The notes: a model not told the origin generated them from the sequence alone. 64,000 nucleotides of DNA from an uncultured Chloroflexia bacterium (GCA_963766735.1 CAVYBU010000003.1:1-64000), one strand, 5' to 3'. Positions 42,991 to 59,437 are shown, counted from the stretch's first letter. Made by a program: numbers and translations.

Positions 42991-44225
42991 CGGATCCCCC
43001 GGACCGCCCGTCGCCGGCGCTTGCCCAGCCCGGATATCGGCGCGAGGCACTGCCGGACCCGGAGGCCGTGGGCGAGGACGAGGTGCTGGTGGCGGCGATA
43101 CGGGCCGAGATCGAGACCGGCGGACCGATCACGTTCGCGCGGTTCATGGAGCGGGCGCTGTACGAGCCGGGACGCGGCTACTACCGTCGGCCCGAGCCGG
43201 GGCCGGGGCGCACGGGCGACTTCCTGACGGCCCCCGAGACACATCCGATCTTCGGCGCGGCGGTCGGCCTGCTGCTCGAGCAGGCCTGGGACGCGATGGG
43301 GCGGCCCCGCCCGTTCGTGGTCACGGAACCGGGCGCAGGGAGCGGCGCGCTGGCGGCCGGGCTGCTGGGCGGTCTGCGTGACCTTCGCTCGCCAATGCTG
43401 GACGCCATCCGGTACCGCCCGGTCGAGGTCGAGGCGGCGCGGGTTGCGGTGTTCCAGGAACGCCTCACCTCCGAGGGCTTCGCCGGGCAGCTGGAGACGG
43501 GCAGTCCCCCAGCGACCCCGCTCGAGTCGGGTGCCGTAGTGGCCAACGAGGTGGTCGACGCGCTTCCGGTGCACCGTGTGGTCGGTCGAGCCGTCGGGAT
43601 CCGGGAGCTGCTGGTCGGCGTTGGAGGGGACGGCGGGTTCGAGACGGTCGAAGCCGAGCCAACGACGCGGGCGCTGGCCGAGCGCCTGGCGACCGAGGGC
43701 GTGACGCTCGCAGACGGGCAGGTTACCGAGGTCTGCCTCGCCACGGACGGGTGGCTGGCGGGCGCGGTCCGTCACCTGGCCAGGGGCATCGTCGTTCTGA
43801 TCGACTACGCCGCTGAACCCGCCACACTCCATGGACCCGACCACCGCACCGGCACCCTGCGGGCCTTCGCGCGGCACGCGGTGGGCGGCGACCCGTTCCG
43901 GCACGTCGGGCGCCAGGACCTGACGGCGACCGTGGACCTCGCCGCCGTCCGGACGGCGGCGGACCGGGCCGGGCTGGACGCCCTGGGCGAGACGACCCAG
44001 GCCGAGTTGCTCGCGGCGGTCGGCAGCGCGGAGCTGACCGGGGCCTGGCTCAGACGGCCGGGCGCGGACCTCCAGGACGTGCTGCTGCTCCGATCCGCGC
44101 TCATGCGGCTCATGGACACGCGTGGCATGGGTGGCTTCCGGGTGCTCGCCTTCGGCCGCGGCCTCCGTCCGGGGACAATGCTGCCCGGGCTGGCGCGGGC
44201 GCTTCGCCCTGGCTCAGGCCGCTGA
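42987..44225 (+). CDS. MidA/NDUFAF7-family SAM-dependent methyltransferase
   Basis: GPITFARFMERALY, GDFLTAPE..FG, EPGAGSG, ANEVVDALPV, IDY, QDLTA.VD. Confidence 0.92.
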   Translation: MTDPPDRPSPALAQPGYRREALPDPEAVGEDEVLVAAIRAEIETGGPITFARFMERALYEPGRGYYRRPEPGPGRTGDFLTAPETHPIFGAAVGLLLEQAWDAMGRPRPFVVTEPGAGSGALAAGLLGGLRDLRSPMLDAIRYRPVEVEAARVAVFQERLTSEGFAGQLETGSPPATPLESGAVVANEVVDALPVHRVVGRAVGIRELLVGVGGDGGFETVEAEPTTRALAERLATEGVTLADGQVTEVCLATDGWLAGAVRHLARGIVVLIDYAAEPATLHGPDHRTGTLRAFARHAVGGDPFRHVGRQDLTATVDLAAVRTAADRAGLDALGETTQAELLAAVGSAELTGAWLRRPGADLQDVLLLRSALMRLMDTRGMGGFRVLAFGRGLRPGTMLPGLARALRPGSGR

Positions 44226-44396
44226 TGCCGTCCGTGCCGGATCGGCCGGGAACTCCCGGGACCAGCCGGGGACCGCACCGGATGCGTACATCGCACGGCC
44301 GAAGCACGCCGCCAACACCGCGCGAAGGGCCGGATGGACGGCGATCCACGCCATGCGGACCGGGCCGTCCGGACCGGGTCCCGGGGTCGGGGCCGC

Positions 44397-44405
44397 TGCT
44401 AGAAT
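44397..44405 (+). promoter_or_regulatory. Extended -10 promoter element of the nuo operon
   Basis: TGcTAGAAT about 105 nt upstream of nuoA. Confidence 0.5.
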
Positions 44406-44511
44406 GGCCTCGCTGCGCTGGAAGATTCGGCGGCGCGGCATGCCCACTGCCATCAAGCGCGAACGCGGGTCGGCCGTCCCCGTACCGGCCCCGCTCGACC
44501 TCGAGGACCAC

Positions 44512-44868
44512 GTGACCGGGATCTGGTACGTCGTCGGGTTTGCCCTCGTCGGAGTCCTGTTCGTGTTCGGCGTGATCGGGCTCGCATGGCTGATCACCCA
44601 TCGCACCCGCGGCGACGTCCACAAGGGCTACCCGTACGAGTCGGGCATCGACACCTACGGCGACACCCACGCCCGGTTCGGCATCTCGTTCTACATCTAC
44701 GCCCTGATGTTCGTCGCCTTCGACATCGAGGTGATCTTCATCTTCCTGTGGGCCCTGGTGTTCCAGGATCTCCTGCTGGGCGGGTTCATCACCATGTTGA
44801 TCTTCGTCGGCATCCTGATGCTCGGCCTCGCGTACGCGTGGCGCAAGGGGGTGTTGTCGTGGCGCTGA
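44512..44868 (+). CDS. nuoA: Complex I subunit A
   Basis: [27 protein letters not shown]. Confidence 0.95.
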
Positions 44869-45608
44869 CCCCGGATGGTCCCGGCGAGCCCGTCATCCCC
44901 GACGCCGCCGCGGCGGACGTGCCCTCCGCCGCGGATGCCAGGTCGGCGCTCGTCGAAGCCTCACCCAGGGACCTGACCCAGCCCATCGTCGTCCCAAACA
45001 CCCTCTGGACCTCGATCCGGTCGGACGCGTACCGCTCCGAGGCGCCGGCATTCACGCACCTGCGCGAGCTTGAGGGGTCGGACCTCGTTCTCTCCGACAC
45101 CGCCCGCTGGGGCCAGCTGGAGGTGATCCCCACCAAGGCCGACCTCGTCGTGGACCTGATCCGGATGAACAGTCTCTGGCCGCTGCTCTCGGGCCTCGCC
45201 TGCTGCGCGATCGAGATGATGTCCGCGGCCACGTCCAAGAACGACATGGACCGCTGGGGCATGTTCCCGTTCCGTGCCTCTCCGCGCCAGGCCGACGTCC
45301 TGATCGTCGCCGGCACCCTGACCACCAAGATGGCCGGCCCGCTCATCCGGCTCTGGGAGCAGATGCCGGAGCCCAAGTGGTGCGTCGCGATGGGCGACTG
45401 CACCTGCTCCGGGGGCCGCTACAAGCGCAGCTACTCCACCATCGAGGGCATCGACCGTGTCATGCCCGTGGACGTCTACGTGCCGGGCTGTCCGCCGCGG
45501 CCGGAAGGCCTGATCTACGGGATGATGAAGCTCGGCCAGCTGGTCAAGGAACAGCGCGGCCACTGGCCCGAGCGCAAGATCGGCCCGAACGTGCCGACGG
45601 ACGTCTAG
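44859..45608 (+). CDS. nuoB: Complex I subunit B
   Basis: [41 protein letters not shown]. Confidence 0.96.
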
Positions 45609-45611
45609 GCG

Positions 45612-46160
45612 ATGGACCGCTCGCTCCGCATCCTGCTCGAGGCCCGCTTTGCGGACAGGCTGACCGGTCCCGTCCGACAGCGCCACGACACCACCGAGAT
45701 CCGGATCCGCCCGGCGGACGTGATCGAGGTACTGCGCACGCTCCACGATGACCCGGATCTGGAGTTCGTCGTCCTCGCGGACCTGTGCGGCGTGGACACC
45801 GGGACGCACATGCAGGTCGTGTACCACCTGTGGTCGATGAAGACGCCGGACTGGCTCCGCATCGTGGCGGACGGCATGCCCCGGGATGACCCGCGCTGTC
45901 CCTCGCTCACCGGCCTGTGGCCCGGCGCCGAGTGGATGGAACGCGAGACGTACGACATGTTCGGGATCATCTTCGAAGGCAACCGGGACCTCCGGCGCAT
46001 CTACATGCCGCCCGACTACACGAGCTTCCCGCTGCGGAAGGACTTCTACCTGGCCGATGACGCCGCCCGCTCCCCGGGTGGCGGCGTGCGCCACATGGAA
46101 CAGACCCAGGCGCCGAACCAGGCGACGCCGGGCGTGCTCCGCCGGACCATGAAGGCCTGA
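45612..46160 (+). CDS. nuoC: Complex I subunit C
   Basis: DLCGVD, W.ERETYDMFGI.F, PLRKDF. Confidence 0.94.
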   Translation: MDRSLRILLEARFADRLTGPVRQRHDTTEIRIRPADVIEVLRTLHDDPDLEFVVLADLCGVDTGTHMQVVYHLWSMKTPDWLRIVADGMPRDDPRCPSLTGLWPGAEWMERETYDMFGIIFEGNRDLRRIYMPPDYTSFPLRKDFYLADDAARSPGGGVRHMEQTQAPNQATPGVLRRTMKA

Positions 46161-46162
46161 CG

Positions 46163-47398
46163 ATGACAACCGCCAAGCCCCACCAGCACCCCTCCCTCGA
46201 TGATCCCCGGATCCTGCTCGACGACCAGATCGGGCAGTTCGAGGCCGTCCCGCCGTACCCGCCGCGCACCGAGCGCGAGGCCGAGTTCTACACCCTCCGC
46301 GACGGCGAGATGTTCGTCAACATGGGGCCGCAGCACCCGTCCACGCACGGCGTGCTCCGCGTCGTGCTCAAGATCAACGGCGAGCGCGTCGTGGACCTGG
46401 ACCCGGTCCTCGGCTACCTCCACCGCGGGGTGGAGAAGCTGTGCGAGAACTCGGACTACCACCACATCATCAGCCAGGTCGATCCGCTGGAGTACGTGAG
46501 CTCGCTGTTCATGGAGTGGTCGCCGGTAATGGCGTTCGAGAAGCTCCTTGACGTCGAGGTCCCGCGCCGCGCCGAGTACATCCGCGTGCTCACCGGGGAG
46601 CTCCTCCGCGTGTCGAGCCACGCGCTGTTCCAGGGCTGGATGGCGCTGGACCTGGGCGGTCTCGCCCCGATCCTGTACAGCTTCATCGAGCGCGACGAGA
46701 TCGTGGAGATGCTGGCTGCGGTCACTGGCCAGCGGATGCTGTTCAACTACTTCCGGATCGGCGGCGTCAACGGGGACCTGAACCACGAGTTCATGTCCCG
46801 CCTCGGCGACTGGATGAGCCGCGCCACCAAGCAGGTCGAGGCGAACATCGGCCTGCTCAACGAGAACGAGATCTTCGTCCGCCGCATGCGCGGCATCGGC
46901 GTCCTGGACGGGGCAACTGCCCTCCGGATGGGCGCCAGCGGCCCCAACCTGCGGGCTTCGGGCGTCGCGTTCGACGTCCGCCGGGCGCACCCGTACTCCA
47001 TCTATCCGGAGCTCGAGTTCGACATCCCGACCCGGGGCGTCGAGCGAGGCGGGGACAGCCTGGACCGCTACCTGCTGCGCCAGGACGAGATCCGTCAGAG
47101 CCTGCGGATCATCGACCAGTGCCTGCACAACATGCCGGACGGTCCGGTCATGGCCCGTCTCCCGCGCCTGCTGCGCCCGCGCCCGGGTCGCGCCTGGGCG
47201 GCGGTCGAGGCTCCGCGCGGGCTGTACGGCACATACGCCATCTCGGATGGCACGGACCAGCCCTTCCGCATGAAGATCCACGACCCGTCATTCGTGCATC
47301 TGCAGCTCGTGGGGCTGCTCATGAAGGACAACCTGATCGCGGACACGATGGCCGTGATGGCGTCCCTGGATCCGGTCATGGGCGGGATCGACAAGTGA
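46163..47398 (+). CDS. nuoD: Complex I subunit D
   Basis: NMGPQHPSTHGVLR, GYLHRGVEK, RIGGV, EAPRG, SLDPVMG; no NiFe CxxC motifs. Confidence 0.95.
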   Translation: MTTAKPHQHPSLDDPRILLDDQIGQFEAVPPYPPRTEREAEFYTLRDGEMFVNMGPQHPSTHGVLRVVLKINGERVVDLDPVLGYLHRGVEKLCENSDYHHIISQVDPLEYVSSLFMEWSPVMAFEKLLDVEVPRRAEYIRVLTGELLRVSSHALFQGWMALDLGGLAPILYSFIERDEIVEMLAAVTGQRMLFNYFRIGGVNGDLNHEFMSRLGDWMSRATKQVEANIGLLNENEIFVRRMRGIGVLDGATALRMGASGPNLRASGVAFDVRRAHPYSIYPELEFDIPTRGVERGGDSLDRYLLRQDEIRQSLRIIDQCLHNMPDGPVMARLPRLLRPRPGRAWAAVEAPRGLYGTYAISDGTDQPFRMKIHDPSFVHLQLVGLLMKDNLIADTMAVMASLDPVMGGIDK

Positions 47399-47462: not shown

Positions 47463-48803
47463 ATGACAACGCCCAACCGCACCTGGGGCCACCTCACCCC
47501 CGCCGGGAAGGTGCTGATCCCCCTGCTGTTCCTGCTCCTGGTTGTGGCGCCGGTCCTGACGATCCTGCTGGTCACCATCGTCGTCCCGTGGCTGATCGAC
47601 GTGCTCAACTCGAATCTGGGCATCGTCCGGTTCGTGGTCGCGATCGGCGGGGTCCTGCTGTTCAGCATCCCGGCCGCATTCATCATCATCTACATGGAGC
47701 TGAAGGTCATCGCCTTCATGAACCTCCGGGTCGGGCCCAACCGCATCGGTCCGGGCGGGGCGCTCATGTCGGTGGTCCACGGCCTCAAGGTCCTCACCAA
47801 GGAGGACTTCACTCCCACCGGCGCGGACCGGATCGTGTTCACCTGGGCTCCGGTGATCGTGTTCCTCACCGCGGTGATGACCTTCCTCGTCATCCCGTTC
47901 GGGCCCGGCCTGGTGGGCCAGGACCTCAACATCGGCCTCCTGTACCTGTTCGCTGTCGGCGGCATGTCGGTGATCGGGCTGATGCTCGCCGGCTGGGCCA
48001 GCTTCAACAAGTACTCGCTGCTGGGCGGCCTCCGGGCCGCGGCCCAGATGGTCAGCTACGAGATCCCGCTCACGCTCTCCGTGGTCGGCCTGATCCTGCT
48101 GGCCGGGACCATGAGCCTGAACCAGATCGCGGAGGCCCAGGCCGGCTGGTTCACGGACTGGTACGTCTTCCGCCAGCCGCTGGGTGCCCTCATCTTCTTC
48201 ATCGCCGCCACCGCCGAGGCCAACCGGACGCCGTTCGACATGGCCGAGGCGGACAGCGAGATCGTGGCGGGGTTCGCCACCGAGTATTCGGGGATGCGCT
48301 TCGGCTTCCTGTTCTTCGCCGAGTACGTGAACGTGTTCATCATCTCGGCGCTGATGGTCACGCTGTTCTTCGGCAGCTGGAACGCCCCGTTCCCGTTCCC
48401 GGAGATCACGCTGGCGCTGGACCCGGGCTCGCTGGGCATCGGCCTGCCGATCCTGCTGCTGGCGGTGCCGGTCGTGCTCACCCTGGTGTTTGCCGCGCCG
48501 TTCTACCTCGCCCGGAGCTCCAGGCCGGCCTGGCAGGCCCTGCTCCTCGGCTTCGTGGCGTTCAACCTGGTCGGCTTCGCCGCCCTGGGCCTGCTGGCCT
48601 ACATCGGCTGGCCGTGGCTGGCCGGTCTCGTCTGGTTCATGCTCAAGTCGTTCGGCTTCGTCTACGTGTTCGTGTGGATGCGCGGCACCTTCCCCCGCGT
48701 GCGCATCGACCAGCTGATGGGGTTCGCCTGGAAGTGGCTCCTGCCCGCCGCCCTCCTGAACCTCTTCGTCACGGCCGCAGCCATCATCATCGTGAAGTCG
48801 TGA
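47463..48803 (+). CDS. nuoH: Complex I subunit H
   Basis: R.GPNR, KED, GWASFNKYSLLGGLR, SYE, NRTPFD.AEA, EYSG, PRVRIDQ. Confidence 0.95.
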   Translation: MTTPNRTWGHLTPAGKVLIPLLFLLLVVAPVLTILLVTIVVPWLIDVLNSNLGIVRFVVAIGGVLLFSIPAAFIIIYMELKVIAFMNLRVGPNRIGPGGALMSVVHGLKVLTKEDFTPTGADRIVFTWAPVIVFLTAVMTFLVIPFGPGLVGQDLNIGLLYLFAVGGMSVIGLMLAGWASFNKYSLLGGLRAAAQMVSYEIPLTLSVVGLILLAGTMSLNQIAEAQAGWFTDWYVFRQPLGALIFFIAATAEANRTPFDMAEADSEIVAGFATEYSGMRFGFLFFAEYVNVFIISALMVTLFFGSWNAPFPFPEITLALDPGSLGIGLPILLLAVPVVLTLVFAAPFYLARSSRPAWQALLLGFVAFNLVGFAALGLLAYIGWPWLAGLVWFMLKSFGFVYVFVWMRGTFPRVRIDQLMGFAWKWLLPAALLNLFVTAAAIIIVKS

Positions 48804-48810
48804 GCACCCC

Positions 48811-49476
48811 ATGAGCTTCATCCCCGGCATCGGCCTCGTCCGCGGCATGGGCCTGACCCTGCGCCGGTTCTTCCAGCCCAAGGCAACCATCCAGTGGCCG
48901 GAACAGAAGGCCGACGTCGCTCCCAAGTTCCGCGGTCGTCTCCAGCTGCTGTACGACGAGTACGGCTCGCTCAAGTGCGAGACGTGCTTCCAGTGCGCCC
49001 AGGCCTGCCCGATCGAGTGCATCGACATGGGTGGCATGGACACCAAGGGCCGCTTCCACGTCCACTGGGGCCCGTCCGAGACGTACTCCGAGCGGCGAGA
49101 GGAGTCCGCACTCCGCCGGTCCGGCCGCCCGGTGGCAGACCCGGCGTTCGCCAGCTTCGAGGCCCTGGACGTCGCCGCCGTGGACGAGATCCTCGAGGCC
49201 CACGACTACGACCCCGGAGACCTGCTGGCGATCCTCGAGGAGACGCAGGCGGCCTACGGGTATCTCCCTGTCGCGGCGCTCAAGCACATCTCGCGGATCA
49301 CCGGGGCGTGGTACGCCACGATCTACGGCGCCGCCACCTCGTACCGCCACCTCCGGTTCGAGCCGCCTGCGGTCGCTTCGGCCGCGCCGGCGGGCGAGGG
49401 CCAGCGGGTGCAGGAGGCCGGCTACCGCTCCGCGCTGGACGCGGCGCTGGGCTACGGCGGGGAGCGCCCGAACTGA
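48811..49476 (+). CDS. nuoI: Fusion of NuoI N-half (one CxxCxxCxxxCP) and the NuoE N-terminal helical domain
   Basis: GMGLTLRRFF..ATIQWPE..FRG..KCETCFQCAQACP, then LLAILEETQAAYGYLP..IYGAATSY; no second ferredoxin motif and no 2Fe-2S Cys. Confidence 0.9.
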   Translation: MSFIPGIGLVRGMGLTLRRFFQPKATIQWPEQKADVAPKFRGRLQLLYDEYGSLKCETCFQCAQACPIECIDMGGMDTKGRFHVHWGPSETYSERREESALRRSGRPVADPAFASFEALDVAAVDEILEAHDYDPGDLLAILEETQAAYGYLPVAALKHISRITGAWYATIYGAATSYRHLRFEPPAVASAAPAGEGQRVQEAGYRSALDAALGYGGERPN

Positions 49477-50834
49477 TGAGCACCTTCCTCACGGTCCCCA
49501 AGGATTGGCCGCTCGTCATCACCGGACGCGCAGGGGCCATCGCAGCGGATCCCGCGGACCTGGACGCGGCCGTCGCCGCGGGCGCGTTCGAGGCGCTCCG
49601 CGTGGTCGTCCGTGACCTGGGCGCTACCGGCACCATCGCCACGATCGCCGCCTCGGGCCTGCGCGGACGCGGCGGCGCGGGCCTCCCCACCGGTGAGAAG
49701 TGGCGCGCCGCAGCCGCGCACGAGGCGGACCAGCGCTACGTGGTCGCCAACGCCTACGACGCGGACCCGGGTGTCCAGATCGGAAGCGCGCTGCTGGCGG
49801 CAGACCCCTGGGTCGTCATCGAGGGCCTCGTGATCGCCGCGTTCACCGCCGGTGCCACGGAGGCGATCCTCGCCCTCCGGGCGGATGACACGGCCCTGGT
49901 CACGATGCTCGAGGGCGCCGTCCTCGCGGCGGGGGAGGCCGGGTTCCTCGGCGACGACGTCATGGGCTCCGGCCACCGCGTCACCGTCACGGTCAGGCCG
50001 GTGCAGGGCGCCTACATGCTGGGCGAGGAGACCGTCCTGCTCAGGGCTCTCGAGGGCAAGCGAGGCCAGCCCGAGCAGCAGCCGCCGTATCCCACCGAAC
50101 GCGGCCTGTGGGACAAGCCCACCGTCGTCAACAACGTCCAGACCCTGGCCGCCGTGCCCTGGATCATCCGCGAGGGCGCGGACCGCTTCGCCGCGATCGG
50201 CGGCGGGAACGGCCAGACAGGCGGGACATCCACCGGAACCGCCCTGGTCCAGCTCCGCGGTCCCGAGGGTGCGGGCATCGCCGAGGTGCCCCTGGGCACG
50301 TCTCTGCGGACCCTGGTGGATCTCGCGGGCGGCAGCGGCACACGACCGCTCAAGGCGCTCCTGGTCGGCGGGCCCACCGGAGGCATCCTGCCCGCGGACC
50401 TCCTGGACACCCCGTACGACTTCGACCCGCTCCGCGATGCCGGCGCCCACATCGGATCCGGTTCCGTGGTGATCGCGGACGAGCGGGCGTGCGTCGTGGA
50501 TCTCGCCCGGCTCCTCACCCGCTTCGCCGCCGACCAGGCGTGCGGCAAGACGATCCCCTGCCGGATCGGCCTGCGCCGTCTCTCGGAGATCGGCGACCGC
50601 ATCGCCGAGGGCCATCCCCGGCCGACGGATCCGGCGCTCATCGGGGACCTCGCCCACGACATCGCGGCGAGCGCCCTGTGCGACCACGAGCGCCTTGCCG
50701 TCCTGCCGCTCACCAGCGTGATGCGATACTTCCGTCCCGAGATCGACGACCACCTCCTCCGCTCCACCTGTCCCGCCGGCGTCTGCGCGCCGATTGCGGT
50801 GGCGGCGGGCGCAGCGACACCAGGACCCCGCTGA
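49476..50834 (+). CDS. nuoF: NuoF/HydB-like flavoprotein subunit, degenerate
   Basis: SGLRGRGGAG, GEET, PTVVNNV, GGPTGG, CGKTIPCR, CPAGVC. Confidence 0.88.
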   Translation: MSTFLTVPKDWPLVITGRAGAIAADPADLDAAVAAGAFEALRVVVRDLGATGTIATIAASGLRGRGGAGLPTGEKWRAAAAHEADQRYVVANAYDADPGVQIGSALLAADPWVVIEGLVIAAFTAGATEAILALRADDTALVTMLEGAVLAAGEAGFLGDDVMGSGHRVTVTVRPVQGAYMLGEETVLLRALEGKRGQPEQQPPYPTERGLWDKPTVVNNVQTLAAVPWIIREGADRFAAIGGGNGQTGGTSTGTALVQLRGPEGAGIAEVPLGTSLRTLVDLAGGSGTRPLKALLVGGPTGGILPADLLDTPYDFDPLRDAGAHIGSGSVVIADERACVVDLARLLTRFAADQACGKTIPCRIGLRRLSEIGDRIAEGHPRPTDPALIGDLAHDIAASALCDHERLAVLPLTSVMRYFRPEIDDHLLRSTCPAGVCAPIAVAAGAATPGPR

Positions 50835-53491
50835 TGGCCGACCTCATCGTGCGCCCCGACAGCCCCGTCCAGAGCCGGGTCGAGTCACGCCCGGACACGC
50901 CCGCAGTCCTCGACACGGTCACGGCGCGGGATGACTCCCTCGCCGAGCGGCTGATCACCACCCAGTCACCGCAGCGCCCGCAGAGCACGCCACGTATCCG
51001 CCTGGAGGTGGACGGGCGCCTGATCGAGGGCTTCGAAGGCCAGACGATCCTCGAGGTCTGCCGCGACAACGGGATCGAGATCCCCACCCTCTGCTACGAA
51101 CCCAAGCTGCCGGGCTTCGGCGCCTGCCGGATGTGCGTGGTCGAGGTGGAGGGCGAGGACGCCCCGCCGATCTCCTGCTCGCGCGAGGCCGAGGCGGACA
51201 TGGTTGTCCGCACCCAGACGGACGAGTTGCGCCGGATCCGGCGGACCAACCTCGAGTTGATCTTCTCGGACCACAACGCGTACTGCCTGCCGCCGTGCCA
51301 GAACAAGTGCCCCAGCCACATCGACATCCCGGGCTTCCTGAAGGCCAACGCGGAGGCCAACTGGACCGAGTCCGTGCGCACCTTCAAGCGCACGATCCCG
51401 TTCCCCAGCATCCTGGGACGCGTCTGCCCCGCCCCCTGCGAGGAGCACTGCCGACGGGACGAGGTGGACGAGGCGATCGCCATCCGGGACAGCCACCGCT
51501 ACGCCGGCGACCAGGTCCTGCGGGCCATGCTTGACGAGGGCATCGACCCACCGCTCCCGTTCGAGAAGCAGGCCCCATCCGGGCGCCGGGCGGCTGTCAT
51601 CGGCTCGGGACCGGCCGGCATGAGCGCAGCGTTCTACCTGCTGCTGGCCGGCCACGACGTGACGATCTTCGAGCGGGACCCCGCACCCGGCGGCATGCTC
51701 CGGTACGGCATCCCGCAGTACCGGCTGCCCAAGGTCGAGGTCCTCGAGGCCGAGTACGAGTCGGTGACCCGCCTGGGCGGCAGGATGGTCTGCAACCAGG
51801 AGCTGGGCAGGGACTTCACGCTGGACGACCTGCAGAACCAGGGCTTCGATGCCGTCCTGGTTGCCATCGGCTGCTACGACACCAACAAGCTCGGCATCCC
51901 CGACGAGGACGCCGACGGCGTCATCGACGGCCTCGACTACCTGCGCACGGCCACGCTGGGCCTGGAGTACCCGGGCCACGCCGCCGCGCGCATCGTGGTC
52001 GTGGGCGGCGGCTTCTCCGCGATGGACTGCGTCCGCACCTCCGTCCGCCAGGGCTCGAAGGACGTCACGCTCGTCTACCGCCGCGACATGAAGGACATGC
52101 CGGCCGCCTCCGAGGTCCACGAGGCCATCGAGGAGGGTGTCACCACCATCTTCCAGGCCGGTCCCACGCGTGTCGTCAAGGACGCGAACACGGGCAAGGT
52201 CACCGGCATCGAGTTCATCCGCATGAAGCTCGGTGAGCCCGACGCGTCAGGGCGGCGACGCCCGGAGCCCGCTCCCGATACCGAGTTCATCATCCCCTGC
52301 GACCGCGTGCTGCTGGCCATCGGCCAGGGCCCGGACCTGCGCTGGTTCGGCGCCGGCAACGACGGCGTCACCGCGAACCGCCAGCGCCGCCTCAAGGCCG
52401 ACGCCGTCACGTTCGAGACGGACCGGCCCGGCGTGTTCGCAGCCGGAGACGTCCGGATCGGCGCCGCGACGGTCGTCCAGGCCATCGCCGAGGGCCGCCG
52501 CTCCGCCTACGCCGTGGACGCATACCTGCGCGGCAACGACCTGGCCGCCATCCGGACCCGGCAGACACTCGCCGAGCCGCAACCCGAGTTCCTCTCGATC
52601 GTGCCGTTCACCGGCGAGGTCAAGGAACCGCGCTACCGCCTCCGGGCCCTGGAGCCCGAGGCCCGCAGCGACAGCTACCTCGAGTACGAGATCCCGTACA
52701 CCCGGGACGAGGCCGTCGCGGAGTCCACCCGCTGCCTCCAGTGCACCTGCGAGGCGATCGGCTTCTGCGACCTGCGCCGGCTGGGCATCGAGTACGGCAC
52801 CACCCTGAAGACGCTCGAGAAGGGCTTCCACCAGGGTGCCGGATACCGCTCCGTCACCGAGAACCGGTTCACGGGGCTGAACCACGACTACGTCCGGGAC
52901 GACAGCCACGCGTTCATCCTGCGGGAGCCCGCCCGGTGCATCGACTGCGGCCGCTGCGCCAACGTCTGCGCCGAGGTGGTCGGCGCTGCCTGCTACGACT
53001 TCATGCGGATCGGCTTCGACACCCTGGTGACCACGCCGCTCGACATGAGCCTCAACGACACGCCGTGCGTGTCCTGCGGCCGCTGCGCGGAGACGTGCCC
53101 GACGGGGGCGCTGATGCCCAAGCCCCGGATCCTGCAGAAGTACGAGGTCGACGAGAGCCGCTGCATCCTGTGCGGCATCTGCGTCGACGCCTGCCCCTAC
53201 GACGCCGTCCGCGACAGCGACCAGTTCGAGCTCAGCCACACGTCCCGCGAGGAGCCGTCCATCGATCTCCTCGCGCTGGCCGCGGTCGAGCGCGAGACGG
53301 AGATGAGCTACATCCGCCGCGAGCGCGACTGGGCGGAGCGAGCCCGGGCCGAGGGACGCGTCCTCGACCGGTCCCGGCTCCTGCCCGTGCTCCCCGCCTC
53401 ACTCGCCAATGGGAACGGGAACGGGAACGGGCACCAGGATGCGCCCGCGAACGACCCGGCCAAGTCCATCAACGCTGAGAGGGACGCGTGA
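50834..53491 (+). CDS. Fusion of NuoG-type Fe-S domains, a GltD/SfrB-like FAD-NADPH oxidoreductase and the NuoI C-half
   Basis: GACRMC 2Fe-2S; PPCQNKCP, GRVCPAPCE; GSGPAG; GGGFSAMD..YRR; CIDCGRC, CVSCGRCAETCP; YEVDESRCILCGICVDACP..FEL. Confidence 0.92.
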   Translation: MADLIVRPDSPVQSRVESRPDTPAVLDTVTARDDSLAERLITTQSPQRPQSTPRIRLEVDGRLIEGFEGQTILEVCRDNGIEIPTLCYEPKLPGFGACRMCVVEVEGEDAPPISCSREAEADMVVRTQTDELRRIRRTNLELIFSDHNAYCLPPCQNKCPSHIDIPGFLKANAEANWTESVRTFKRTIPFPSILGRVCPAPCEEHCRRDEVDEAIAIRDSHRYAGDQVLRAMLDEGIDPPLPFEKQAPSGRRAAVIGSGPAGMSAAFYLLLAGHDVTIFERDPAPGGMLRYGIPQYRLPKVEVLEAEYESVTRLGGRMVCNQELGRDFTLDDLQNQGFDAVLVAIGCYDTNKLGIPDEDADGVIDGLDYLRTATLGLEYPGHAAARIVVVGGGFSAMDCVRTSVRQGSKDVTLVYRRDMKDMPAASEVHEAIEEGVTTIFQAGPTRVVKDANTGKVTGIEFIRMKLGEPDASGRRRPEPAPDTEFIIPCDRVLLAIGQGPDLRWFGAGNDGVTANRQRRLKADAVTFETDRPGVFAAGDVRIGAATVVQAIAEGRRSAYAVDAYLRGNDLAAIRTRQTLAEPQPEFLSIVPFTGEVKEPRYRLRALEPEARSDSYLEYEIPYTRDEAVAESTRCLQCTCEAIGFCDLRRLGIEYGTTLKTLEKGFHQGAGYRSVTENRFTGLNHDYVRDDSHAFILREPARCIDCGRCANVCAEVVGAACYDFMRIGFDTLVTTPLDMSLNDTPCVSCGRCAETCPTGALMPKPRILQKYEVDESRCILCGICVDACPYDAVRDSDQFELSHTSREEPSIDLLALAAVERETEMSYIRRERDWAERARAEGRVLDRSRLLPVLPASLANGNGNGNGHQDAPANDPAKSINAERDA

Positions 53492-54024
53492 CGCTGCCGG
53501 AGACGATCCCGCTGCTCGGGTTCGGGTGGGATGACCTGCTGTTCATGATTCTGGCCGGGATCATGGTCGGGTCGGCGCTGCTGGTCGTGACCATGAAGGA
53601 CATCATCCGCTGCGGCCTGGCGATGATCGTGTGCTTCGCGGCACTCGCGGGGCTGTACGTGTTCGCGGGCGCACCACTGGTCGCCGGTGCCCAGGTGCTG
53701 GTCTACATCGGTGCCATCAGCGTCCTTGTCCTGTTCGCGATCATGCTGACCCAGACGAAGGCCGGTCCCGCAGCGCTCGTGTTCCAGACGCAGGCCATCC
53801 CGGCCGCGATCGCGGCCGTGGTGCTGGCGCTGCTGATCGCCGTCTCAGTTGCGTCCACCGACTGGCCGGAGGCCGGCGCCCGGATCTGGACGGACACGAC
53901 CGCGATGGCGACGACGCTGTTCGCGGACTTCACGCTCCCGTTCGAGGTCGTGAGCGTGCTGCTCCTGGCCGCGGTCGTCGGTGCCGTGTACATCGCCAGG
54001 CGCGAGCCGGGAGGGAGCGACTGA
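53488..54024 (+). CDS. nuoJ: Complex I subunit J
   Basis: QVLVYIGAISVL.LFAIML, PFEVVSVLLL. Confidence 0.95.
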   Translation: MTLPETIPLLGFGWDDLLFMILAGIMVGSALLVVTMKDIIRCGLAMIVCFAALAGLYVFAGAPLVAGAQVLVYIGAISVLVLFAIMLTQTKAGPAALVFQTQAIPAAIAAVVLALLIAVSVASTDWPEAGARIWTDTTAMATTLFADFTLPFEVVSVLLLAAVVGAVYIARREPGGSD

Positions 54025-54356
54025 TGTTCTCCTTCCTCGACAACGTCTCGCAGAGCCTGGACGCCTACCTGGTCCTGGCCGGCCTGCTGTTCGCCATCGG
54101 CGCGTTCGGCTTCCTGGCCCGCCGGAACGCGATCAGCATGCTGATGTCCATCGAGCTGATGCTCAACGCGGTGAACCTCTCGATCATCGCGTTCGGGGCA
54201 TTCACCACCTCGCTGCGCGAGAGCGCCTCCGTGATCGCGCTGATCGTCATTGCGGCCGCGGCGGCCGAGGCGACGATCGGCCTGGCGATCGTGATCGCGA
54301 TCTACCGCAACCGGAAGACGCCGCTCGTCGACGAGTACGACGCGATGCGGCAGTAG
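54024..54356 (+). CDS. nuoK: Complex I subunit K
   Basis: RRNAISMLMSIELMLNA, AAAEA.IGLAI. Confidence 0.95.
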   Translation: MFSFLDNVSQSLDAYLVLAGLLFAIGAFGFLARRNAISMLMSIELMLNAVNLSIIAFGAFTTSLRESASVIALIVIAAAAAEATIGLAIVIAIYRNRKTPLVDEYDAMRQ

Positions 54357-54368
54357 GCGGCGATCACG

Positions 54369-56419
54369 ATGTACCCCCTCCTGAACACCTTGTTCGCCTC
54401 CGAGGGAGAGGCCGTCGTCACCGGAGCGGTGGATCCGGGGATCTACCCCCTGCTGATCGCGCTGATCCCGTTGCTGCCTATCCTCGGCTTCGCCTTCACC
54501 GCCCTGTTCGGGCGCCGGCTGCAGGCGAAGGGGGGCGGACCGCCGCCGAGATCGTGCCGGTGGGCATCGTCATCGCGGTCTGGGTGATCGCGATGATGGT
54601 CATCGTCCCGGCGCTGACCCACGCGGAGCCCTTCGGCGAGCACGGCCTGGACGTCACGCTCTGGACGTGGATCCCCGCCGGGGACTTCGTGGTGAACATG
54701 GGATTCCACGTGGATGCCCTGACCGCGGCGCTCCTGATCGTCGTCACGACCATCGGCATGCTCGTGCACATCTACTCGATCGGGTACATGGCGCACGACC
54801 CGGGCACGTGGCGGTTCTTCGCCTACCTCAACCTGTTCATGTTCTCGATGCTCGTGCTCGTGCTGGCGGACAACTGGGTGCTGGTGTTCGCGGGCTGGGA
54901 GCTGGTGGGCCTGTCCTCGTACTCGCTGATCGGGTTCTGGTACCCGAAGCGGTCCGCGGCGCTGGCCGCCAAGAAGGCGTTCATCGTGAACCGCGTCGGC
55001 GACGTGGGCTTCGCGCTCGGGATCATGGCGATCTGGGTCAATACCGGGACGCTGAACATCCAGGAATTGCTTGCCAGGCTGATCGAGATGCCGGCCGCAG
55101 AGCTGACGATCCCGCTCGTGGTCGTCGCGCTGCTCGTGTTCGCAGGCGCGATGGGCAAGAGCGCCCAGTTCCCGCTGCACGTCTGGCTCCCGGACGCGAT
55201 GGAGGGCCCGACCCCGGTCTCCGCCCTGATCCACGCTGCCACCATGGTCAACGCCGGCGTCTACCTCGTCGCGCGCGCCAACCCGCTGTTCGCGCACGCG
55301 CAGGAAGCGATGGTCGTCGTTGCGGCGATCGGCATCTTCACCGCCATCCTCGCGGCGTCGATCGCGTTCACCCAGACCGACATCAAGCGCGTGCTCGCGT
55401 ACTCCACCCTCTCGCAGCTGGGCTACATGTTCGCCGCGCTGGGCGTGGGCGCCTACGTCGCGGCCATCTTCCACCTCATGACCCACGGCTTCTTCAAGGG
55501 CCTCCTGTTCCTCGGGTCGGGCTCGGTCATCCACGCGGTGGACGGCGAGCAGGACATGAACCGGATGGGAAGGCTGTGGCGGAAGATCCCGATCACGCAC
55601 TGGACGATGCTCGTGGGCACGATCGCGATCGCGGGCATCCCGCCGCTCGCGGGCTTCTTCTCCAAGGACGAGATCCTGGGCGAGGCGTTCAAGTTCGGGT
55701 TCTACTGGGTCTGGGGTATCGGCCTGGTGGTCGCGGCGATGACCGCGTTCTACATGTGGCGCCTGATGGGCAAGACGTTCTACGGCGAGTCCCACGTGGA
55801 CCCGAGCGTGGAGCCCAAGGTCCACGAGTCGCCGTGGACCATGACCCTGCCGCTCGTCCTGCTCGCGATCCCGGCCGCGTTGCTGGGCATCGCCCTGGGC
55901 ACGCCGCTCGGTGCCTCGACCCTCAAGGGCTGGCTGGAGCCGGTCTTCGTCGAGTCCGAGGAGTACCTCTACGGCGAGCCGCACGCGTACGAGCTGTTCG
56001 GCATCGACGGGTACCTGATCCTGGCCAGCGTCGCCGTGGCAACCCTCGGCCTGATCCTCGGGATCTGGCTGTTCGGCGCCTTCAAGCGCCGGGGCAAGCC
56101 GGAGCGCGTCCGGCAGCTGACCAACGCGAACGGCGCGACGCGGTTCCTCTACCGCGCGACGCTCAACAAGTGGTGGTTCGACGAGCTCAACGACCTGCTG
56201 TTCATCCGCATCGGCGGGCGCATCGCCGCCGCCATGTGGTGGTTCGACCGATCCATCGTGGACGGTGCCGTCAACGGCGTCGGCAGCGTGACCCGCGGCG
56301 CGGGCGGCGGGCTGCGTCAGATCCAGACGGGGCGTGTCCAGAACTACGCGCTGGGCATCGCGATCGGGTTGATCGTGATGGCGGCCTCGTTCCTCCTGAT
56401 CGTGGGGCAGCCCCGATGA
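54369..56419 (+). CDS. nuoL: Complex I subunit L (1-nt frameshift in the G-run at ~54530-54535, likely a sequencing error)
   Basis: N-terminus LIPLLPILGF in one frame continues as RTAAEIVP..YSIGYM, GWELVG, GKSAQFPL, EGPTPVSALIHAATMV, QTGRVQNY. Confidence 0.93.
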
Positions 56420-57963
56420 TCGACCTCTCCGGGCTGCACCTGGTGACCCTGGTCACCTTCCTGCCCCTGCTGGGCGCTCTCGTGATCGCGTTCACGCCGA
56501 CCAGCCGGCCGAACGTCGCGCGCTACACCGCGCTCGGTTTCGCCCTCCTCGCGTGGGTCGCCTCGCTCGCGCTGCTGGTCGCCTTCGTGGCCGGTGCGGA
56601 TGGCTTCCAGTTCGTCGACCAGGTCGACTGGATCCCGATGTTCGGCATCCAGTACAAGGTGGGCGTGGACGGGCTCTCGCTCGTGCTCGTGGTCCTCACC
56701 ACGACCCTCACCTGGATCAGCATCCTCGCCTCCTTCGGCCCGATCCAGAACCGGGTGAAGGAGTACATGATCTCGTTCCTCGTCCTCGAGGTGGGGATGA
56801 CGGGCGTGTTCGTTGCGATGGACCTGTTCCTGTTCTACATCTTCTGGGAGCTGGTCCTCGTCCCGATGTACCTGATCATCGGGATCTGGGGCGGCAAGAA
56901 CCGCATCTACGCCACCATCAAGTTCGTCCTCTACACCCTGGTCGGGTCGCTGCTGATGCTGGTCGCGATCCTGGCCGCCGCCTTCACCTACCAGACCACC
57001 AACGGGTGGGCAGGGGCGTTCGACGTCGGGAAGCTCACCGAGTTCGCGGCCGCCGGCAACTTCGACGGCACCTTCGGCTTCTTCGCGTTCGCGGCATTCG
57101 CGCTCGCCTTTGCGATCAAGGTCCCGATGTTCCCGTTCCACACCTGGCTCCCGGACGCCCACGTGGAGGCGCCCACGGCGGGCTCCGTCATCCTGGCCGG
57201 CGTCCTGCTGAAGCTGGGTGGCTACGGGTTCATCCGGTTCGCGATCCCGCTGTTCCCGGAGGCGGCGCAGACCTGGGCCCCGCTGATCATCGTGATGAGC
57301 CTGATCGCGATCATCTACGGCGCGATCGTCGCCCTGGTCCAGCCAGACCTCAAGAAGCTGGTCGCCTATTCGTCGGTCAGCCACATGGGCTTCGTGACCC
57401 TGGGCATCTTCGTGTTCCAGGAACAGGGCATGCAGGGGGCCATCCTCCAGATGGTCAACCACGGGCTCATCACCGGCGCACTCTTCCTCCTCGTGGGCGT
57501 GATCTACGAGCGCACCCACGATCGGACGATCGCCAAGATGGGCGGGCTGGGGTCGAAGACCCCTGTGTACGCCGCCGCGTTCGGGTTCTTCGTCTTCGCC
57601 TCGGTCGGCCTGCCGGGCCTGTCCGGGTTCGTGGGCGAGTTCCTGGTCCTGGTCGGAACGTTCGCCTTCAACCCCGCCGCCGCCGCGATCGCGACCTTCG
57701 TGATGATCCTTGCCGCCGGGTACCTGCTCTGGATGTTCCAGCGAGTGGCCTTCGGCGAGCTGTCGGGGTTCCTCAAGGGTCTCGGCGACCACCTCACCGA
57801 CCTCCGCCCTGTCGAGGCACTCACGCTTGTGCCGCTGGGCGCGCTGGTCGTGGTGTTCGGCCTCTTCCCGGGCCTGCTCCTGGACCTGATCGCCGGTTCC
57901 GTGACGAACGCACTCGCCGCGGTGCAACAGGCTGCACCCATCGCCCTCGGCCTGTGGCGGTAG
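56416..57963 (+). CDS. nuoM: Complex I subunit M
   Basis: GVDGLS, FWE..LVPM, KVPMFPFHTWLPDAHVEAPT, LVAYSSVSHMG, FVGEF. Confidence 0.96.
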   Translation: MIDLSGLHLVTLVTFLPLLGALVIAFTPTSRPNVARYTALGFALLAWVASLALLVAFVAGADGFQFVDQVDWIPMFGIQYKVGVDGLSLVLVVLTTTLTWISILASFGPIQNRVKEYMISFLVLEVGMTGVFVAMDLFLFYIFWELVLVPMYLIIGIWGGKNRIYATIKFVLYTLVGSLLMLVAILAAAFTYQTTNGWAGAFDVGKLTEFAAAGNFDGTFGFFAFAAFALAFAIKVPMFPFHTWLPDAHVEAPTAGSVILAGVLLKLGGYGFIRFAIPLFPEAAQTWAPLIIVMSLIAIIYGAIVALVQPDLKKLVAYSSVSHMGFVTLGIFVFQEQGMQGAILQMVNHGLITGALFLLVGVIYERTHDRTIAKMGGLGSKTPVYAAAFGFFVFASVGLPGLSGFVGEFLVLVGTFAFNPAAAAIATFVMILAAGYLLWMFQRVAFGELSGFLKGLGDHLTDLRPVEALTLVPLGALVVVFGLFPGLLLDLIAGSVTNALAAVQQAAPIALGLWR

Positions 57964-57973
57964 GAGGACACCC

Positions 57974-59437
57974 GTGATCTTCTCCGACGCCGTCACGCTG
58001 GCGCCGTTCATCGCCGCGGTGCTGCTGGCAGCCGCGATCATCGTCGTCGACTTCATCGTGCCCGGCCGCAAGGTCCCGGTGCTCGCGGTGACGTTTGTCG
58101 GCCTTGCGCTCGTCGCCGGGCTGATCGTCCTCACGGGCCAGACCGGATCCACGGCCTTCAACGGCTCCTACGTGGTGGACCCGCTGACCACGTTCCTGGA
58201 CGTGCTGTTCGTGGCGATCGTCGCGCTGAGCGTCGCGTTCGCGCCGGACTACATGGAGGAGCGCGGCCTGCCGGTGGCCGAGTTCAGCGCGATCCTCGTG
58301 TTCGCGATGTCGGGCGCCATGCTCCTTGCCGGGTCGGCGGACCTGCTGCTGCTGTTCCTGGGCCTGGAGCTCATGGTCCTGCCCGGGTACATCCTGGCCG
58401 GCTACCACAAGTCGGACGGCTTCTCGACCGAGGGCGCGATCAAGTACTTCCTGCTCGGGTCCTTCTCCTCCGCCATCTTCCTGTTCGGGCTCGCGTTCGT
58501 GTGGGGCATGACCGGCACCACCCGGATCGATGGCGTGGCGCAATCCCTGGCCGCGCTCGTGAGCGGCACCGCGGCGCTCTCGCCGGGCCTGGCCCTTGGC
58601 CTCGCGTTCATGACCACGGGCGTGGCATTCAAGATCGCCGCCGTCCCGTTCCACTACTGGACGCCGGATGCGTACCAGGGCTCCCCGACCCCGGTCACCG
58701 GCTATCTGTCGGTCGGGCCGAAGATCGGGGCGTTCGCACTGATCATCCGGCTCTTCGGCGAAGCGCTCGGTCCCCTCGCGCTGGACTGGAACATCGTGAT
58801 CATGGTGCTGGCGGCCCTGACGATGACCCTTGGCAACCTGGTCGCGCTGACCCAGGACAACGTCAAGCGGATGCTCGCGTACTCCTCGATCGCACACACC
58901 GGCTACATGCTGGTCGGGTTCGCGGCGTTCGCGGCCGGTGAGATCCAGGGCCTCGAGGGGCTGCTCTTCTACAGCGCCGCGTACGCGTTCATGAACCTGG
59001 GCGCATTCGCCGTGATCGCGGCCCTCCAGAAGCGCCGTGCGGTGACCAGCAACCTGTCCACCTTCGCGGGCCTCATCCGCCGTGAGCCGGTCCTGGCGTT
59101 GATGATGACCCTGTTCATGCTGTCCCTCACGGGCATCCCGCCCACGGCCGGGTTCTTCGGCAAGTTCTACGTGATCCTCTCGGCGGTCCAGGCCGGTGGG
59201 TGGCTGACCGCCCTCGCGATCCTTGCGGTGCTCAACGCGGCGGTGGCGGCGTTCTACTACCTGCGCGTCGTGGTCTACATGTTCATGCGGGAACCGGAGG
59301 GCGAGATCCCGGTGATGCCGCACGGGCGCCTCGTCTGGGCCGGACTGGTGGTGGCAACGGTGTTGACGGTGGCGCTGGGCCTGTTCCCCAACGCCCTGCT
59401 GGACATCGTCGAGGGCGCGGCCGCGGCGATCGGCTAG
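57974..59437 (+). CDS. nuoN: Complex I subunit N
   Basis: EGAIKYFLLG, FKIAAVPFH.W.PDAYQGSPT, KRMLAYSSIAH, GIPPTAGFFGK. Confidence 0.96.
   Translation: MIFSDAVTLAPFIAAVLLAAAIIVVDFIVPGRKVPVLAVTFVGLALVAGLIVLTGQTGSTAFNGSYVVDPLTTFLDVLFVAIVALSVAFAPDYMEERGLPVAEFSAILVFAMSGAMLLAGSADLLLLFLGLELMVLPGYILAGYHKSDGFSTEGAIKYFLLGSFSSAIFLFGLAFVWGMTGTTRIDGVAQSLAALVSGTAALSPGLALGLAFMTTGVAFKIAAVPFHYWTPDAYQGSPTPVTGYLSVGPKIGAFALIIRLFGEALGPLALDWNIVIMVLAALTMTLGNLVALTQDNVKRMLAYSSIAHTGYMLVGFAAFAAGEIQGLEGLLFYSAAYAFMNLGAFAVIAALQKRRAVTSNLSTFAGLIRREPVLALMMTLFMLSLTGIPPTAGFFGKFYVILSAVQAGGWLTALAILAVLNAAVAAFYYLRVVVYMFMREPEGEIPVMPHGRLVWAGLVVATVLTVALGLFPNALLDIVEGAAAAIG

Follow-up and report, generated by a model that had tools for sequence, protein, structure and literature searches.

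A 64,000-nucleotide stretch of DNA from an uncultured Chloroflexia bacterium (GCA_963766735.1 CAVYBU010000003.1:1-64000; hereafter the window) carries a complex I operon in which nuoI, the gene of a core iron-sulfur subunit, is cut in the loop between its two cysteine motifs. A three-gene module lies between the two halves and is fused to both. The operon encodes a real and conserved complex I of the 11-subunit type and, as whole-genome searches found one NuoD and no intact NuoI, it is the sole complex I in the genome. Our overall reading, to which we give a probability of roughly 55%, is that the two NuoI halves would pair with each other, that the complex would be non-bifurcating and fed mainly by reduced nicotinamide adenine dinucleotide phosphate (NADPH), and that the NuoF-like protein of the module would serve mainly as a scaffold or side branch.

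All genes of the operon are on the plus strand, in the order nuoA-B-C-D-H-[gene 1-gene 2-gene 3]-J-K-L-M-N (Table 1). An earlier note on this DNA, made from the sequence alone, had read the same order, with three genes in the nuoI slot and no nuoE, nuoF or nuoG, and NCBIfam and Pfam bear it out: NuoA-D, H and J-N, ten genes of the 11-subunit core, each have a match to one or the other database (NuoM by Pfam), and nuoE, nuoF and nuoG are absent elsewhere in the window's nuo operon. Neighboring genes are joined by the short overlaps that the note had pointed out, namely TGATG at 49474-49478 (genes 1 and 2) and at 50832-50836 (genes 2 and 3) and GTGA at 53488-53491 (gene 3 and nuoJ), and both fusions are in frame.

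NuoI is encoded in two halves on separate genes

Gene 1 begins as NuoI. Residues 12-77 match positions 1-65 of the 121 positions of the NuoI model TIGR01971 (E = 1.2e-13), seven of the eight best NCBIfam matches of the protein are NuoI models, and this part aligns to the TYKY/NuoI chains of solved complex I structures (E = 3e-12). The other half closes gene 3, where positions 70-114 of TIGR01971 were the top match among 72 family matches to the last 135 residues (E = 2.6e-12). A search for NuoI in the whole genome (3.6 Mb, 94% complete) returned as its two top matches the same two stretches, 48844-49041 (model positions 1-65) and 53126-53257 (model positions 71-114), which are complementary and do not overlap. 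These best matches lie on separate genes and, at 51.6 and 43.2 bits, stay below the family cut-off of 113; since none of the 16 TIGR01971 matches in the genome (0/16) reaches that cut-off, the genome contains no intact nuoI.

Alignment with three intact NuoI sequences from the same class places the break in the loop between the two CxxCxxCxxxCP motifs, gene 1 extending to the loop past the first motif and gene 3 resuming shortly before the second. Taken together, the halves have the features of NuoI/Nqo9/TYKY (NDUFS8) in their usual order, with the N-terminal helix, a TIQYPE-type motif, FRG, both CxxCxxCxxxCP motifs and the FE(L) tail, and they occupy the position between nuoH and nuoJ that is the nuoI slot. 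Unlike in those proteins, the subunit is divided between two polypeptides whose NuoI-coding parts are separated by about 4 kb, and each part is joined to another protein.

The four cysteines and the proline of the N-terminal half are invariant in 21/21 sequences, as are C777, C780, C783, C787 and P788 of the C-terminal half in 19/19. In the 2x[4Fe-4S] ferredoxin fold, each cluster is held by three cysteines of one motif and a fourth supplied by the other. Given this three-plus-one rule, two invariant motifs and a genome with no other NuoI, we infer that the halves come together as a single 2x[4Fe-4S] domain with clusters N6a and N6b. Co-folding of gene 1 residues 1-112 with gene 3 residues 758-835 and two 4Fe-4S clusters, carried out without controls, gave 0.28, 0.31 and 0.24 against a mark of 0.32, scores that speak neither for nor against pairing.

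Anatomy of the inserted module

Past the NuoI half, gene 1 continues into the N-terminal domain of a NuoE-type protein, the switch that the earlier note had described together with the NuoI half at the end of gene 3; domain models support both. Residues 117-187 of gene 1 cover the first ~70 positions of the FdsG/HoxE/NuoE models and positions 2-63 of 145 in PF01257, and residues 117-186 align to 9bov_C, NfnC and 8oh5_A in a search against solved structures. The gene 1 protein contains no cysteine after the NuoI motif (none past residue 70), so that its tail is without a [2Fe-2S] cluster.

Gene 2 matches PF01512 and PF10589 and scores 315 bits against the NuoF model TIGR01959, whose cut-off is 559. 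Residues 24-442 align to residues 160-574 of the 630 in HydB (8a6t_B) and to residues 113-526 of the 584 in 9bov_B, and the protein also aligns to the cores of NfnB and 8oh5_B. It stops after CPAGVC; the N-terminal thioredoxin fold and the C-terminal cluster domain of BfuB are absent.

Gene 3 matches NF009454 over residues 55-714 (E = 2.3e-163), and residues 55-787 align to residues 4-699 of 9bov_A (E = 6.8e-157) as well as to 8oh5_C and 9n5u_A (NfnA/StnC). Its domains, a [2Fe-2S] domain, a GltD-type domain for flavin adenine dinucleotide (FAD) and NADPH, and a HydA-type 2x[4Fe-4S] domain, stand in the order of NfnA/StnC, with which Pfam agrees. The GltD-type matches are PF14691 (residues 151-228), PF07992 (residues 253-554) and TIGR01318 (residues 153-565), while FeFe-hydrogenase and HoxU models match the HydA-type domain and its motifs align to 9bov_A. 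At 885 residues, compared with 1172-1178, gene 3 lacks the C-terminal FdhF/NuoG-like domain and ends in the NuoI C-half instead.

Beyond the NuoI C-half, gene 3 carries a tail of ~75 residues (53260-53488) with a conserved ...ERDW...GR...LLPVLP... pattern and an (NG)n repeat. Families f1 and f2 share this tail, whereas f4 proteins stop shortly past the NuoI half and lack it.

Conservation across the class

The fused gene 1 was found in 40/41 relatives, the single miss being a 72%-complete genome, and in 192 of the 201 genomes of the class Limnocylindria, single-contig genomes among them; the nine misses are 66-91% complete, and the count includes eight genomes flagged as unpublished. Identity of gene 1 drops to 40-49% in family f4 and to ~31% in f3, with the match still covering both parts. 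All 20 loci sampled from four families keep the gene 1-2-3 order, with gene 3 reaching into the NuoI half. Of the 80 nearest species-level loci, 66 are complete for the seven parts and colinear without exception; 14 are missing one part or more. Relatives are encoded in at least 559 species genomes, of which the contig-level comparison covers the 80 nearest, and all carriers near the window are metagenome-assembled genomes. NCBI names of near-identical proteins assign the source organism to Candidatus Limnocylindrales (Chloroflexota).

The reading in the earlier note implied that relatives should not pair an intact nuoI with the module elsewhere. Within the class, an intact NuoI above the cut-off occurs in only three (G110, G100, and G061) of the 121 genomes that are at least 90% complete, a count that includes three genomes flagged as unpublished. 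G110 holds it besides a split NuoI; for G100 and G061, half matches were not among the rows listed. These three genomes suggest that a few lineages of the class have a second, canonical complex I.

The earlier note had also proposed examining sequence across the two junctions. Independent Logan contigs from separate public runs bridge both, and no single contig covers the whole stretch. Run X1, possibly the source sample of the window, provides contigs over 48700-49335 and 52589-53398, and a contig from run X15, an RNA library in which DNA carry-over is possible, lies over 53069-53340. One Logan joint, from 50211 to 52454, was set aside as another organism or a chimera, its shorter side comprising 22 letters, with 29 foreign letters in the gap.

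A nuoB-linked module in other Chloroflexota

A profile of gene 1 also detected fusions in other Chloroflexota families, in open reading frames of 229-253 residues in which the match spans the NuoI half into the NuoE domain. The fused gene is present in 29/29 genomes of f25, 11/11 of f29, 4/5 of f10 and single genomes of f47 and f20; many other matches to the profile at the same threshold are plain, unfused NuoE-type proteins. Near-identical protein names identify f25 as Ktedonobacteraceae, including Dictyobacter alpinus (KDA_07470) and D. arantiisoli, both of which we take to be cultured.

Five of six fetched loci read nuoB-gene1-gene2-gene3, with no further nuo gene within the 18-kb locus, and the sixth (f20) reads A-B-C-D-H-1-2-3. 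For example, the cluster of genome G337 (C1:1295000-1313000) is flanked by a divergent isocitrate dehydrogenase gene and a glycosyl hydrolase gene. In each of five such genomes, NuoB occurs twice, once next to the module, and NuoD at least twice; a single intact NuoI belongs to a canonical operon, and the two half matches are present as well. The second NuoD of G337 belongs to a nuoA-C-D-H cluster without nuoB. The module thus travels with nuoB alone in Ktedonobacteria and three further families. NuoB holds cluster N2 and contacts NuoI, and this association therefore provides an independent genomic link of the module and the NuoI halves to the quinone module.

A profile search of 1.84 billion representatives gave 72 clusters at E <= 1e-30. 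Among the 10 full-length clusters looked up, most of which carried no name, there was no taxon outside Chloroflexota/Limnocylindria.

State of the cofactor sites

In gene 3, the cysteines of the [2Fe-2S] domain and of the GltD-type clusters, the FAD motif GxGPAG, and VYRR (Y415, R416, R417) are invariant among relatives. The pattern VYRR...MPA is likewise invariant and is the same as in the NADPH-binding 9bov_A; its RR pair presumably holds the 2'-phosphate of NADPH.

Gene 2 presents a mixed picture. The loop for flavin mononucleotide (FMN), GLRGRGGAG, is kept in all 21 sequences shown, aligned to the loop of HydB/9bov_B, and GEET is conserved. The remaining sites were counted in 71 near-complete orthologues from the 80 nearest species. 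At the motif of cluster N3/B1, which reads ACGKTIPC in the window, the cysteines at positions 1, 3 and 4 are found in 71, 71 and 70 of the 71, and position 2 is threonine (38) or serine (33), never cysteine. Neither the lysine of GTK nor the glutamate of NNVET, to which, following work on Thermus Nqo1, we assign roles in the NADH site, is kept in any orthologue (0/71 each): the lysine is replaced by I, A, V, M or C, and the glutamate by Q in 61 and otherwise by A, H, V, G or L. Family f4 has alanine at the second N3/B1 cysteine position and retains the lysine and the glutamate. All four N3/B1 cysteines are kept in f3, in one f1 genus (L032) and in the Ktedonobacteria-type loci, and the lysine and glutamate in f3 and the Ktedonobacteria-type loci, with both lost in L032. 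Because f3 and the Ktedonobacteria-type loci, and for the cysteines also L032, keep these residues, the changes are derived within the class, and the NuoF-like site for NADH, the reduced form of nicotinamide adenine dinucleotide (NAD), looks degraded in the lineage of the window. A C-x2-(non-Cys)-x2-C...C pattern with three conserved cysteines is the look of 3Fe-4S sites, and one idea is that threonine or serine at the second B1 position could leave a 3Fe-4S or oxygen-ligated cluster.

Some f1 genera, f2 and f4 have the NuoE-like [2Fe-2S] domain, which f3 and Ktedonobacteria lack. The domain is absent as well in the clade of the window, all 80 near relatives of which have fewer than three cysteines in the tail of gene 1. 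Compared with the window over 57 loci, gene 3 has a median identity of 86.0%, NuoD of 85.3% and gene 2 of 68.4%; gene 2 is the least conserved of the three module genes in 56/57 loci.

The genome holds three NuoF-like genes, two of them outside a nuo context, at C8:162100-164160 (minus strand) and C21:52664-53746. Matches to [2Fe-2S] and HydA-type ferredoxins follow the C8 gene in the same orientation, and the gene therefore probably encodes a soluble diaphorase of Hox/Fds/Bfu type.

Relation to known enzymes and complexes

Relatives of the 11-subunit type include the cyanobacterial NDH-1, which uses ferredoxin, and Fpo, which uses FpoF/F420, and in these the input module docks on an intact NuoI/FpoI-type subunit. 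The complex described here shares with them the NuoA-D and H-N core without NuoEFG and a lineage-specific donor module. We know of no relative of this type in which a core subunit is split by the input module.

The closest relatives of the module by sequence are StnABC and NfnABC (8OH5, 9BOV, 9N5U), which are the same three-protein module, and by this similarity it descends from transhydrogenases of the Nfn-Bfu/Stn type. The earlier note had spoken of an E/F/G-like module; that a module was inserted stands, and it is more exactly described as a trimmed transhydrogenase module of this type. Passages of the Stn structural report (PMC10482914) have NADPH reducing the FAD of StnC, with electrons passing through C7-C6-C5-C4-C3 to B1 and the FMN in StnB; there the glycine-rich loop binds FMN, the FMN site binds NAD, and the FdhF-like domain of StnC, from residue 683, is a non-functional side branch. 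Stn and Nfn are portrayed in sections of two reports (PMC10482914, PMC11829005) as soluble tetramers whose formation is mediated by the C-terminal FdhF/NuoG-like domain. Bifurcation, according to excerpts of PMC9304861 and PMC11829005, needs the [B1-FMN-C1] site together with the C-terminal B3/B4 domain of BfuB, which reduces ferredoxin, and non-bifurcating Bfu homologues are without B2-B5.

Set against these enzymes as their reports portray them in part, the module has the NuoI C-half where StnC has its FdhF-like domain from residue 683, and it lacks the thioredoxin-like N-domain and the C-terminal B3/B4 of BfuB. In this genus there is also no C1 [2Fe-2S] and B1 is short of one cysteine, and the genes are inside a nuo operon. 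We have not filed the module as a Bfu enzyme because it is without C1, the N- and C-terminal domains of BfuB and one B1 cysteine.

Nuo-Bfu, a predicted 14-subunit complex I in which BfuABC replaces NuoEFG (Schut et al. 2022, PMC9304861, in part), also has a Bfu-related module encoded mid-operon among nuo genes, where it is proposed to feed electrons into a proton-pumping complex. The relevant passages of that paper report Nuo-Bfu in Deferribacteres, Proteobacteria, Planctomycetes and Nitrospirae, not Chloroflexota, and differ from the present case in placing the module in the nuoEFG slot, with an intact NuoI, the extra clusters of BfuB and no GltD domain. Mbx-like operons, which are related to complex I, likewise encode a GltD-type NAD(P)H flavoprotein at the NuoI position; in a portion of Degli Esposti 2015 (PMC4758237), this gltD-related flavoprotein stands in place of NuoI and is said to reduce NAD(P)+. 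Compared with the operons as described there, NuoI in the window is kept, split, and fused, and the nuo operon is full, with NuoL, M and N. A figure legend in PMC6776052 gives 'nuoA-E,H-N', with no F or G, for the type I NADH dehydrogenase of Thermomicrobium roseum. Full-text literature searches yielded no description of the split-NuoI architecture among the matches listed, and supplementary clade tables, which are outside such searches, could list the genes; a complex I with split NuoI is apparently undescribed in print.

A proposed NADPH-fed complex I and its alternatives

In the mechanism that we favor, pairing of the NuoI halves would fasten the module to NuoB/NuoD in a closed ring that runs NuoI-N, NuoE N-domain, NuoF-like protein, StnC-like protein, NuoI-C. 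In the order Limnocylindrales, hydride would enter mainly from NADPH at the GltD-type FAD of gene 3. From the FAD, electrons would travel by way of both [4Fe-4S] clusters of the GltD-type part and then the HydA-type 2x[4Fe-4S] domain to N6a/N6b and on through N2 in NuoB to quinone, driving proton pumping. The NuoI C-half would thereby replace the dead-end FdhF-like domain of StnC at the exit of the HydA-type domain, and the NuoF-like protein and the NuoE N-domain would be mainly scaffold and side branch.

NADPH is proposed as the main input because gene 3 is as conserved as NuoD and gene 2 is the least conserved, because the lysine, the glutamate and one N3/B1 cysteine are replaced in gene 2 of the near relatives, and because VYRR...MPA is invariant and aligned to the NADPH-binding NfnA. 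The module is predicted to be non-bifurcating because it lacks every cofactor domain needed for bifurcation. A fuller claim would be that the whole class runs an NADPH-fuelled complex I made by splicing a transhydrogenase into the NuoI loop, with N6a/N6b built from two polypeptides, a former dead-end branch turned into the main wire, and the Cys-x2-(T/S/A)-x2-Cys of N3/B1 holding a 3Fe-4S or oxygen-ligated cluster; we put this at slightly under even odds.

Several points weigh against the favored mechanism. The NADPH specificity is proposed from homology and from a motif whose role is presumed, and the roles of the GTK lysine and the NNVET glutamate are carried over from Thermus Nqo1. The retention of the FMN loop, GEET and three B1 cysteines speaks for a kept cofactor site and not a dead scaffold. 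As the basal forms (f3, f4 in part, and Ktedonobacteria) keep NADH-site residues, the ancestral enzyme may have used NADH too. The genome encodes PntB (C21:39787-41076), so that the NADH and NADPH pools are interconvertible either way. Lastly, gene 3 is in two frames at 2 of the 20 sampled loci (L041 and L047).

The alternative that survives best keeps the same architecture and the re-associated NuoI and has two inputs, NADH at the NuoF-like FMN and NADPH at the GltD-type FAD, both feeding N6a/N6b. The conserved FMN loop and GEET fit such an enzyme, as do the three of four B1 cysteines held in 70-71 of the 71 orthologues, the threonine or serine at the second B1 position (71/71) that could keep a 3Fe-4S or oxygen-ligated cluster, the retention of K, E and four cysteines in f3 and Ktedonobacteria, and the binding of NAD at the Stn FMN site described in a passage of PMC10482914. 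We regard dual input as a serious possibility and yet a rather doubtful one for the lineage of the window, where the GTK lysine and the NNVET glutamate are gone from all 71 orthologues, gene 2 is the least conserved in 56/57 loci, and there is no N1a-type [2Fe-2S] domain.

The NADPH-fed reading takes electrons to flow toward quinone, and sequence sets no direction. Complex I and GltD-type sites are reversible in principle, and the complex could instead use the proton motive force to drive electrons from quinol to NADP+, providing NADPH for biosynthesis. Such reverse operation appears improbable for the sole complex I of nearly all genomes in the class, as pure biosynthesis would leave them with no such proton-pumping dehydrogenase, and PntB is present as an NADPH source.

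A Bfu-type bifurcating or confurcating complex I, in which NADPH, NAD(H) and a low-potential carrier would be coupled while quinone is reduced, is very unlikely given that C1, the BfuB C-terminal domain and the N-terminal thioredoxin fold are absent and B1 is short of one cysteine, even though the nearest relatives by sequence are the bifurcating NfnABC and StnABC and a Bfu-linked complex I is predicted in the passages of Schut et al. (PMC9304861).

Equally hard to credit is a model without re-association, in which the last motif of gene 3 would pair within its own chain with the CVSCGRCAETCP motif, the half-NuoI of gene 1 serving only as an anchor on the membrane arm. Fer4_7, Fer4_9 and Fer4_10 do span residues 738-791 of gene 3, covering the second and third motifs at the usual spacing, but comparison with the homologous 9bov_A, HydA and HoxU makes CIDCGRCANVC (residues 702-712) the partner of the second motif, and the third motif and its flanks score best as NuoI 70-114. 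The four cysteines of gene 1 are also invariant though partnerless in their own chain, and unpaired halves would mean no N6a/N6b in 118/121 genomes.

An assembly chimera, frameshift artefact or set of decaying pseudogenes, for which one could cite the probable homopolymer frameshift in nuoL of the same window and the gene 3 broken in 2/20 sampled relatives, is refuted for practical purposes by the conservation of the architecture, as the earlier note had argued on other grounds: the same layout recurs in 192/201 class genomes, 66/66 complete loci are colinear, contigs of separate runs bridge both junctions, and the NuoI motifs are invariant.

Other features of the operon

Coordinates of the operon genes and of the domains within the module are collected in Table 1. 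The window has a G+C content of ~70%. The NuoB translation shows CC...C...CP, which we take to be the ligands of cluster N2. Two core proteins have N-terminal extensions ahead of the family-model match, of ~85 residues in NuoB (44859-45120) and ~45 residues in NuoD (46163-46300).

In nuoL, the reading frame switches at a G run at ~54528-54535, with the first ~55 residues (MYPLL...GRRLQAKG) in one frame and the remainder in another. The gene is in a single frame in all 19 relatives that have both parts; the switch is probably a homopolymer assembly error and less likely a fresh pseudogene.

A Methyltransf_28 (PF02636) gene lies immediately 5' of nuoA, at 42879-44225 on the plus strand, and a look-alike is found within 1.2 kb upstream of nuoA at 59 of the 61 relatives' loci with enough upstream sequence. 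Methyltransf_28 corresponds to the MidA/NDUFAF7 family; among its members is an assembly factor of mitochondrial complex I, which acts on NDUFS2/NuoD by methylation.

Table 1. Genes of the nuo operon and domains of the inserted module, in window coordinates
Feature	Coordinates	Strand	Evidence and remarks
nuoA	44440..44868	+	NF005839, E = 4.9e-26, on open reading frame 44122-44868; ATG of 'MPTAIK' at 44440
nuoB	44859..45608	+	start uncertain, GTG at 44838 or 44859; models match residues 85-231 of 247, E = 4.5e-64, above cut-off
nuoC	45612..46160	+	TIGR01961, E = 1.4e-33
nuoD	46163..47398	+	NF008974, E = 1.6e-126; sole NuoD in genome
nuoH	47463..48803	+	NF004741, E = 1.2e-95, above cut-off
gene 1 (221 residues)	48811..49476	+	NuoI N-half fused to NuoE/NfnC N-terminal domain
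NuoI N-half core in gene 1, TIQWPE + FRG + first CxxCxxCxxxCP (CETCFQCAQACP)	48844..49041	+	TIGR01971 positions 1-65, E = 1.7e-13
N-terminal helical domain in gene 1, NuoE/HoxE/FdsG/NfnC type	49159..49371	+	NF004638, residues 117-187; PF01257, residues 125-186
gene 2 (452 residues)	49476..50834	+	NuoF/BfuB-like core
gene 3 (885 residues)	50834..53491	+	[2Fe-2S] + GltD-type FAD/NAD(P)H + HydA-type 2x[4Fe-4S] + NuoI C-half + tail
NuoG/HydA-type [2Fe-2S] in gene 3	50993..51220	+	PF13510, residues 54-129, E = 9.5e-21; cysteines invariant in 19/19
GltD/NfnB-type part of gene 3: two [4Fe-4S] sites, FAD fold, NAD(P)H fold with VYRR	51284..52537	+	PF14691, PF07992, TIGR01318
HydA/HoxU/NuoG-type 2x[4Fe-4S] in gene 3 (CIDCGRCANVC ... 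CVSCGRCAETCP)	52916..53113	+	PF22117, residues 695-760
NuoI C-half in gene 3, YEVDESRCILCGICVDACP...FELS, second CxxCxxCxxxCP	53126..53257	+	TIGR01971 positions 71-114, E = 7.6e-11
nuoJ	53488..54024	+	NF005163, E = 3.5e-34
nuoK	54024..54356	+	NF004320, above cut-off; ATG at 54024 overlaps nuoJ stop
nuoL	54369..56419	+	NF005141, E = 5e-215 for main frame; frame change at G run
nuoM	56416..57963	+	PF00361, E = 1.9e-78; ATG at 56416
nuoN	57974..59437	+	TIGR01770, E = 2.8e-130, above cut-off

Implications

Complex I is among the most thoroughly studied enzymes; its core subunits are treated as fixed, and its known inputs (NuoEFG, FpoF, ferredoxin sites) dock on an intact NuoI. The present case departs from this in that a core iron-sulfur subunit is split by a domain insertion, that the donor module comes from an electron-bifurcating transhydrogenase, and that it is the sole complex I of at least 118 among the 121 genomes of 90% completeness or more in a widespread class. 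New here is the separate nuoB-gene1-gene2-gene3 cluster of Ktedonobacteria, including named Dictyobacter. The named Dictyobacter isolates have both the nuoB-linked module and a canonical complex I, which opens the question to laboratory experiments. If the complex is run by NADPH, it would provide a case from nature of modules being swapped as complex I evolved, and models of redox balance and energy yield would change for the class and for Ktedonobacteria. A whole class of abundant soil and freshwater bacteria would then respire on NADPH rather than NADH.

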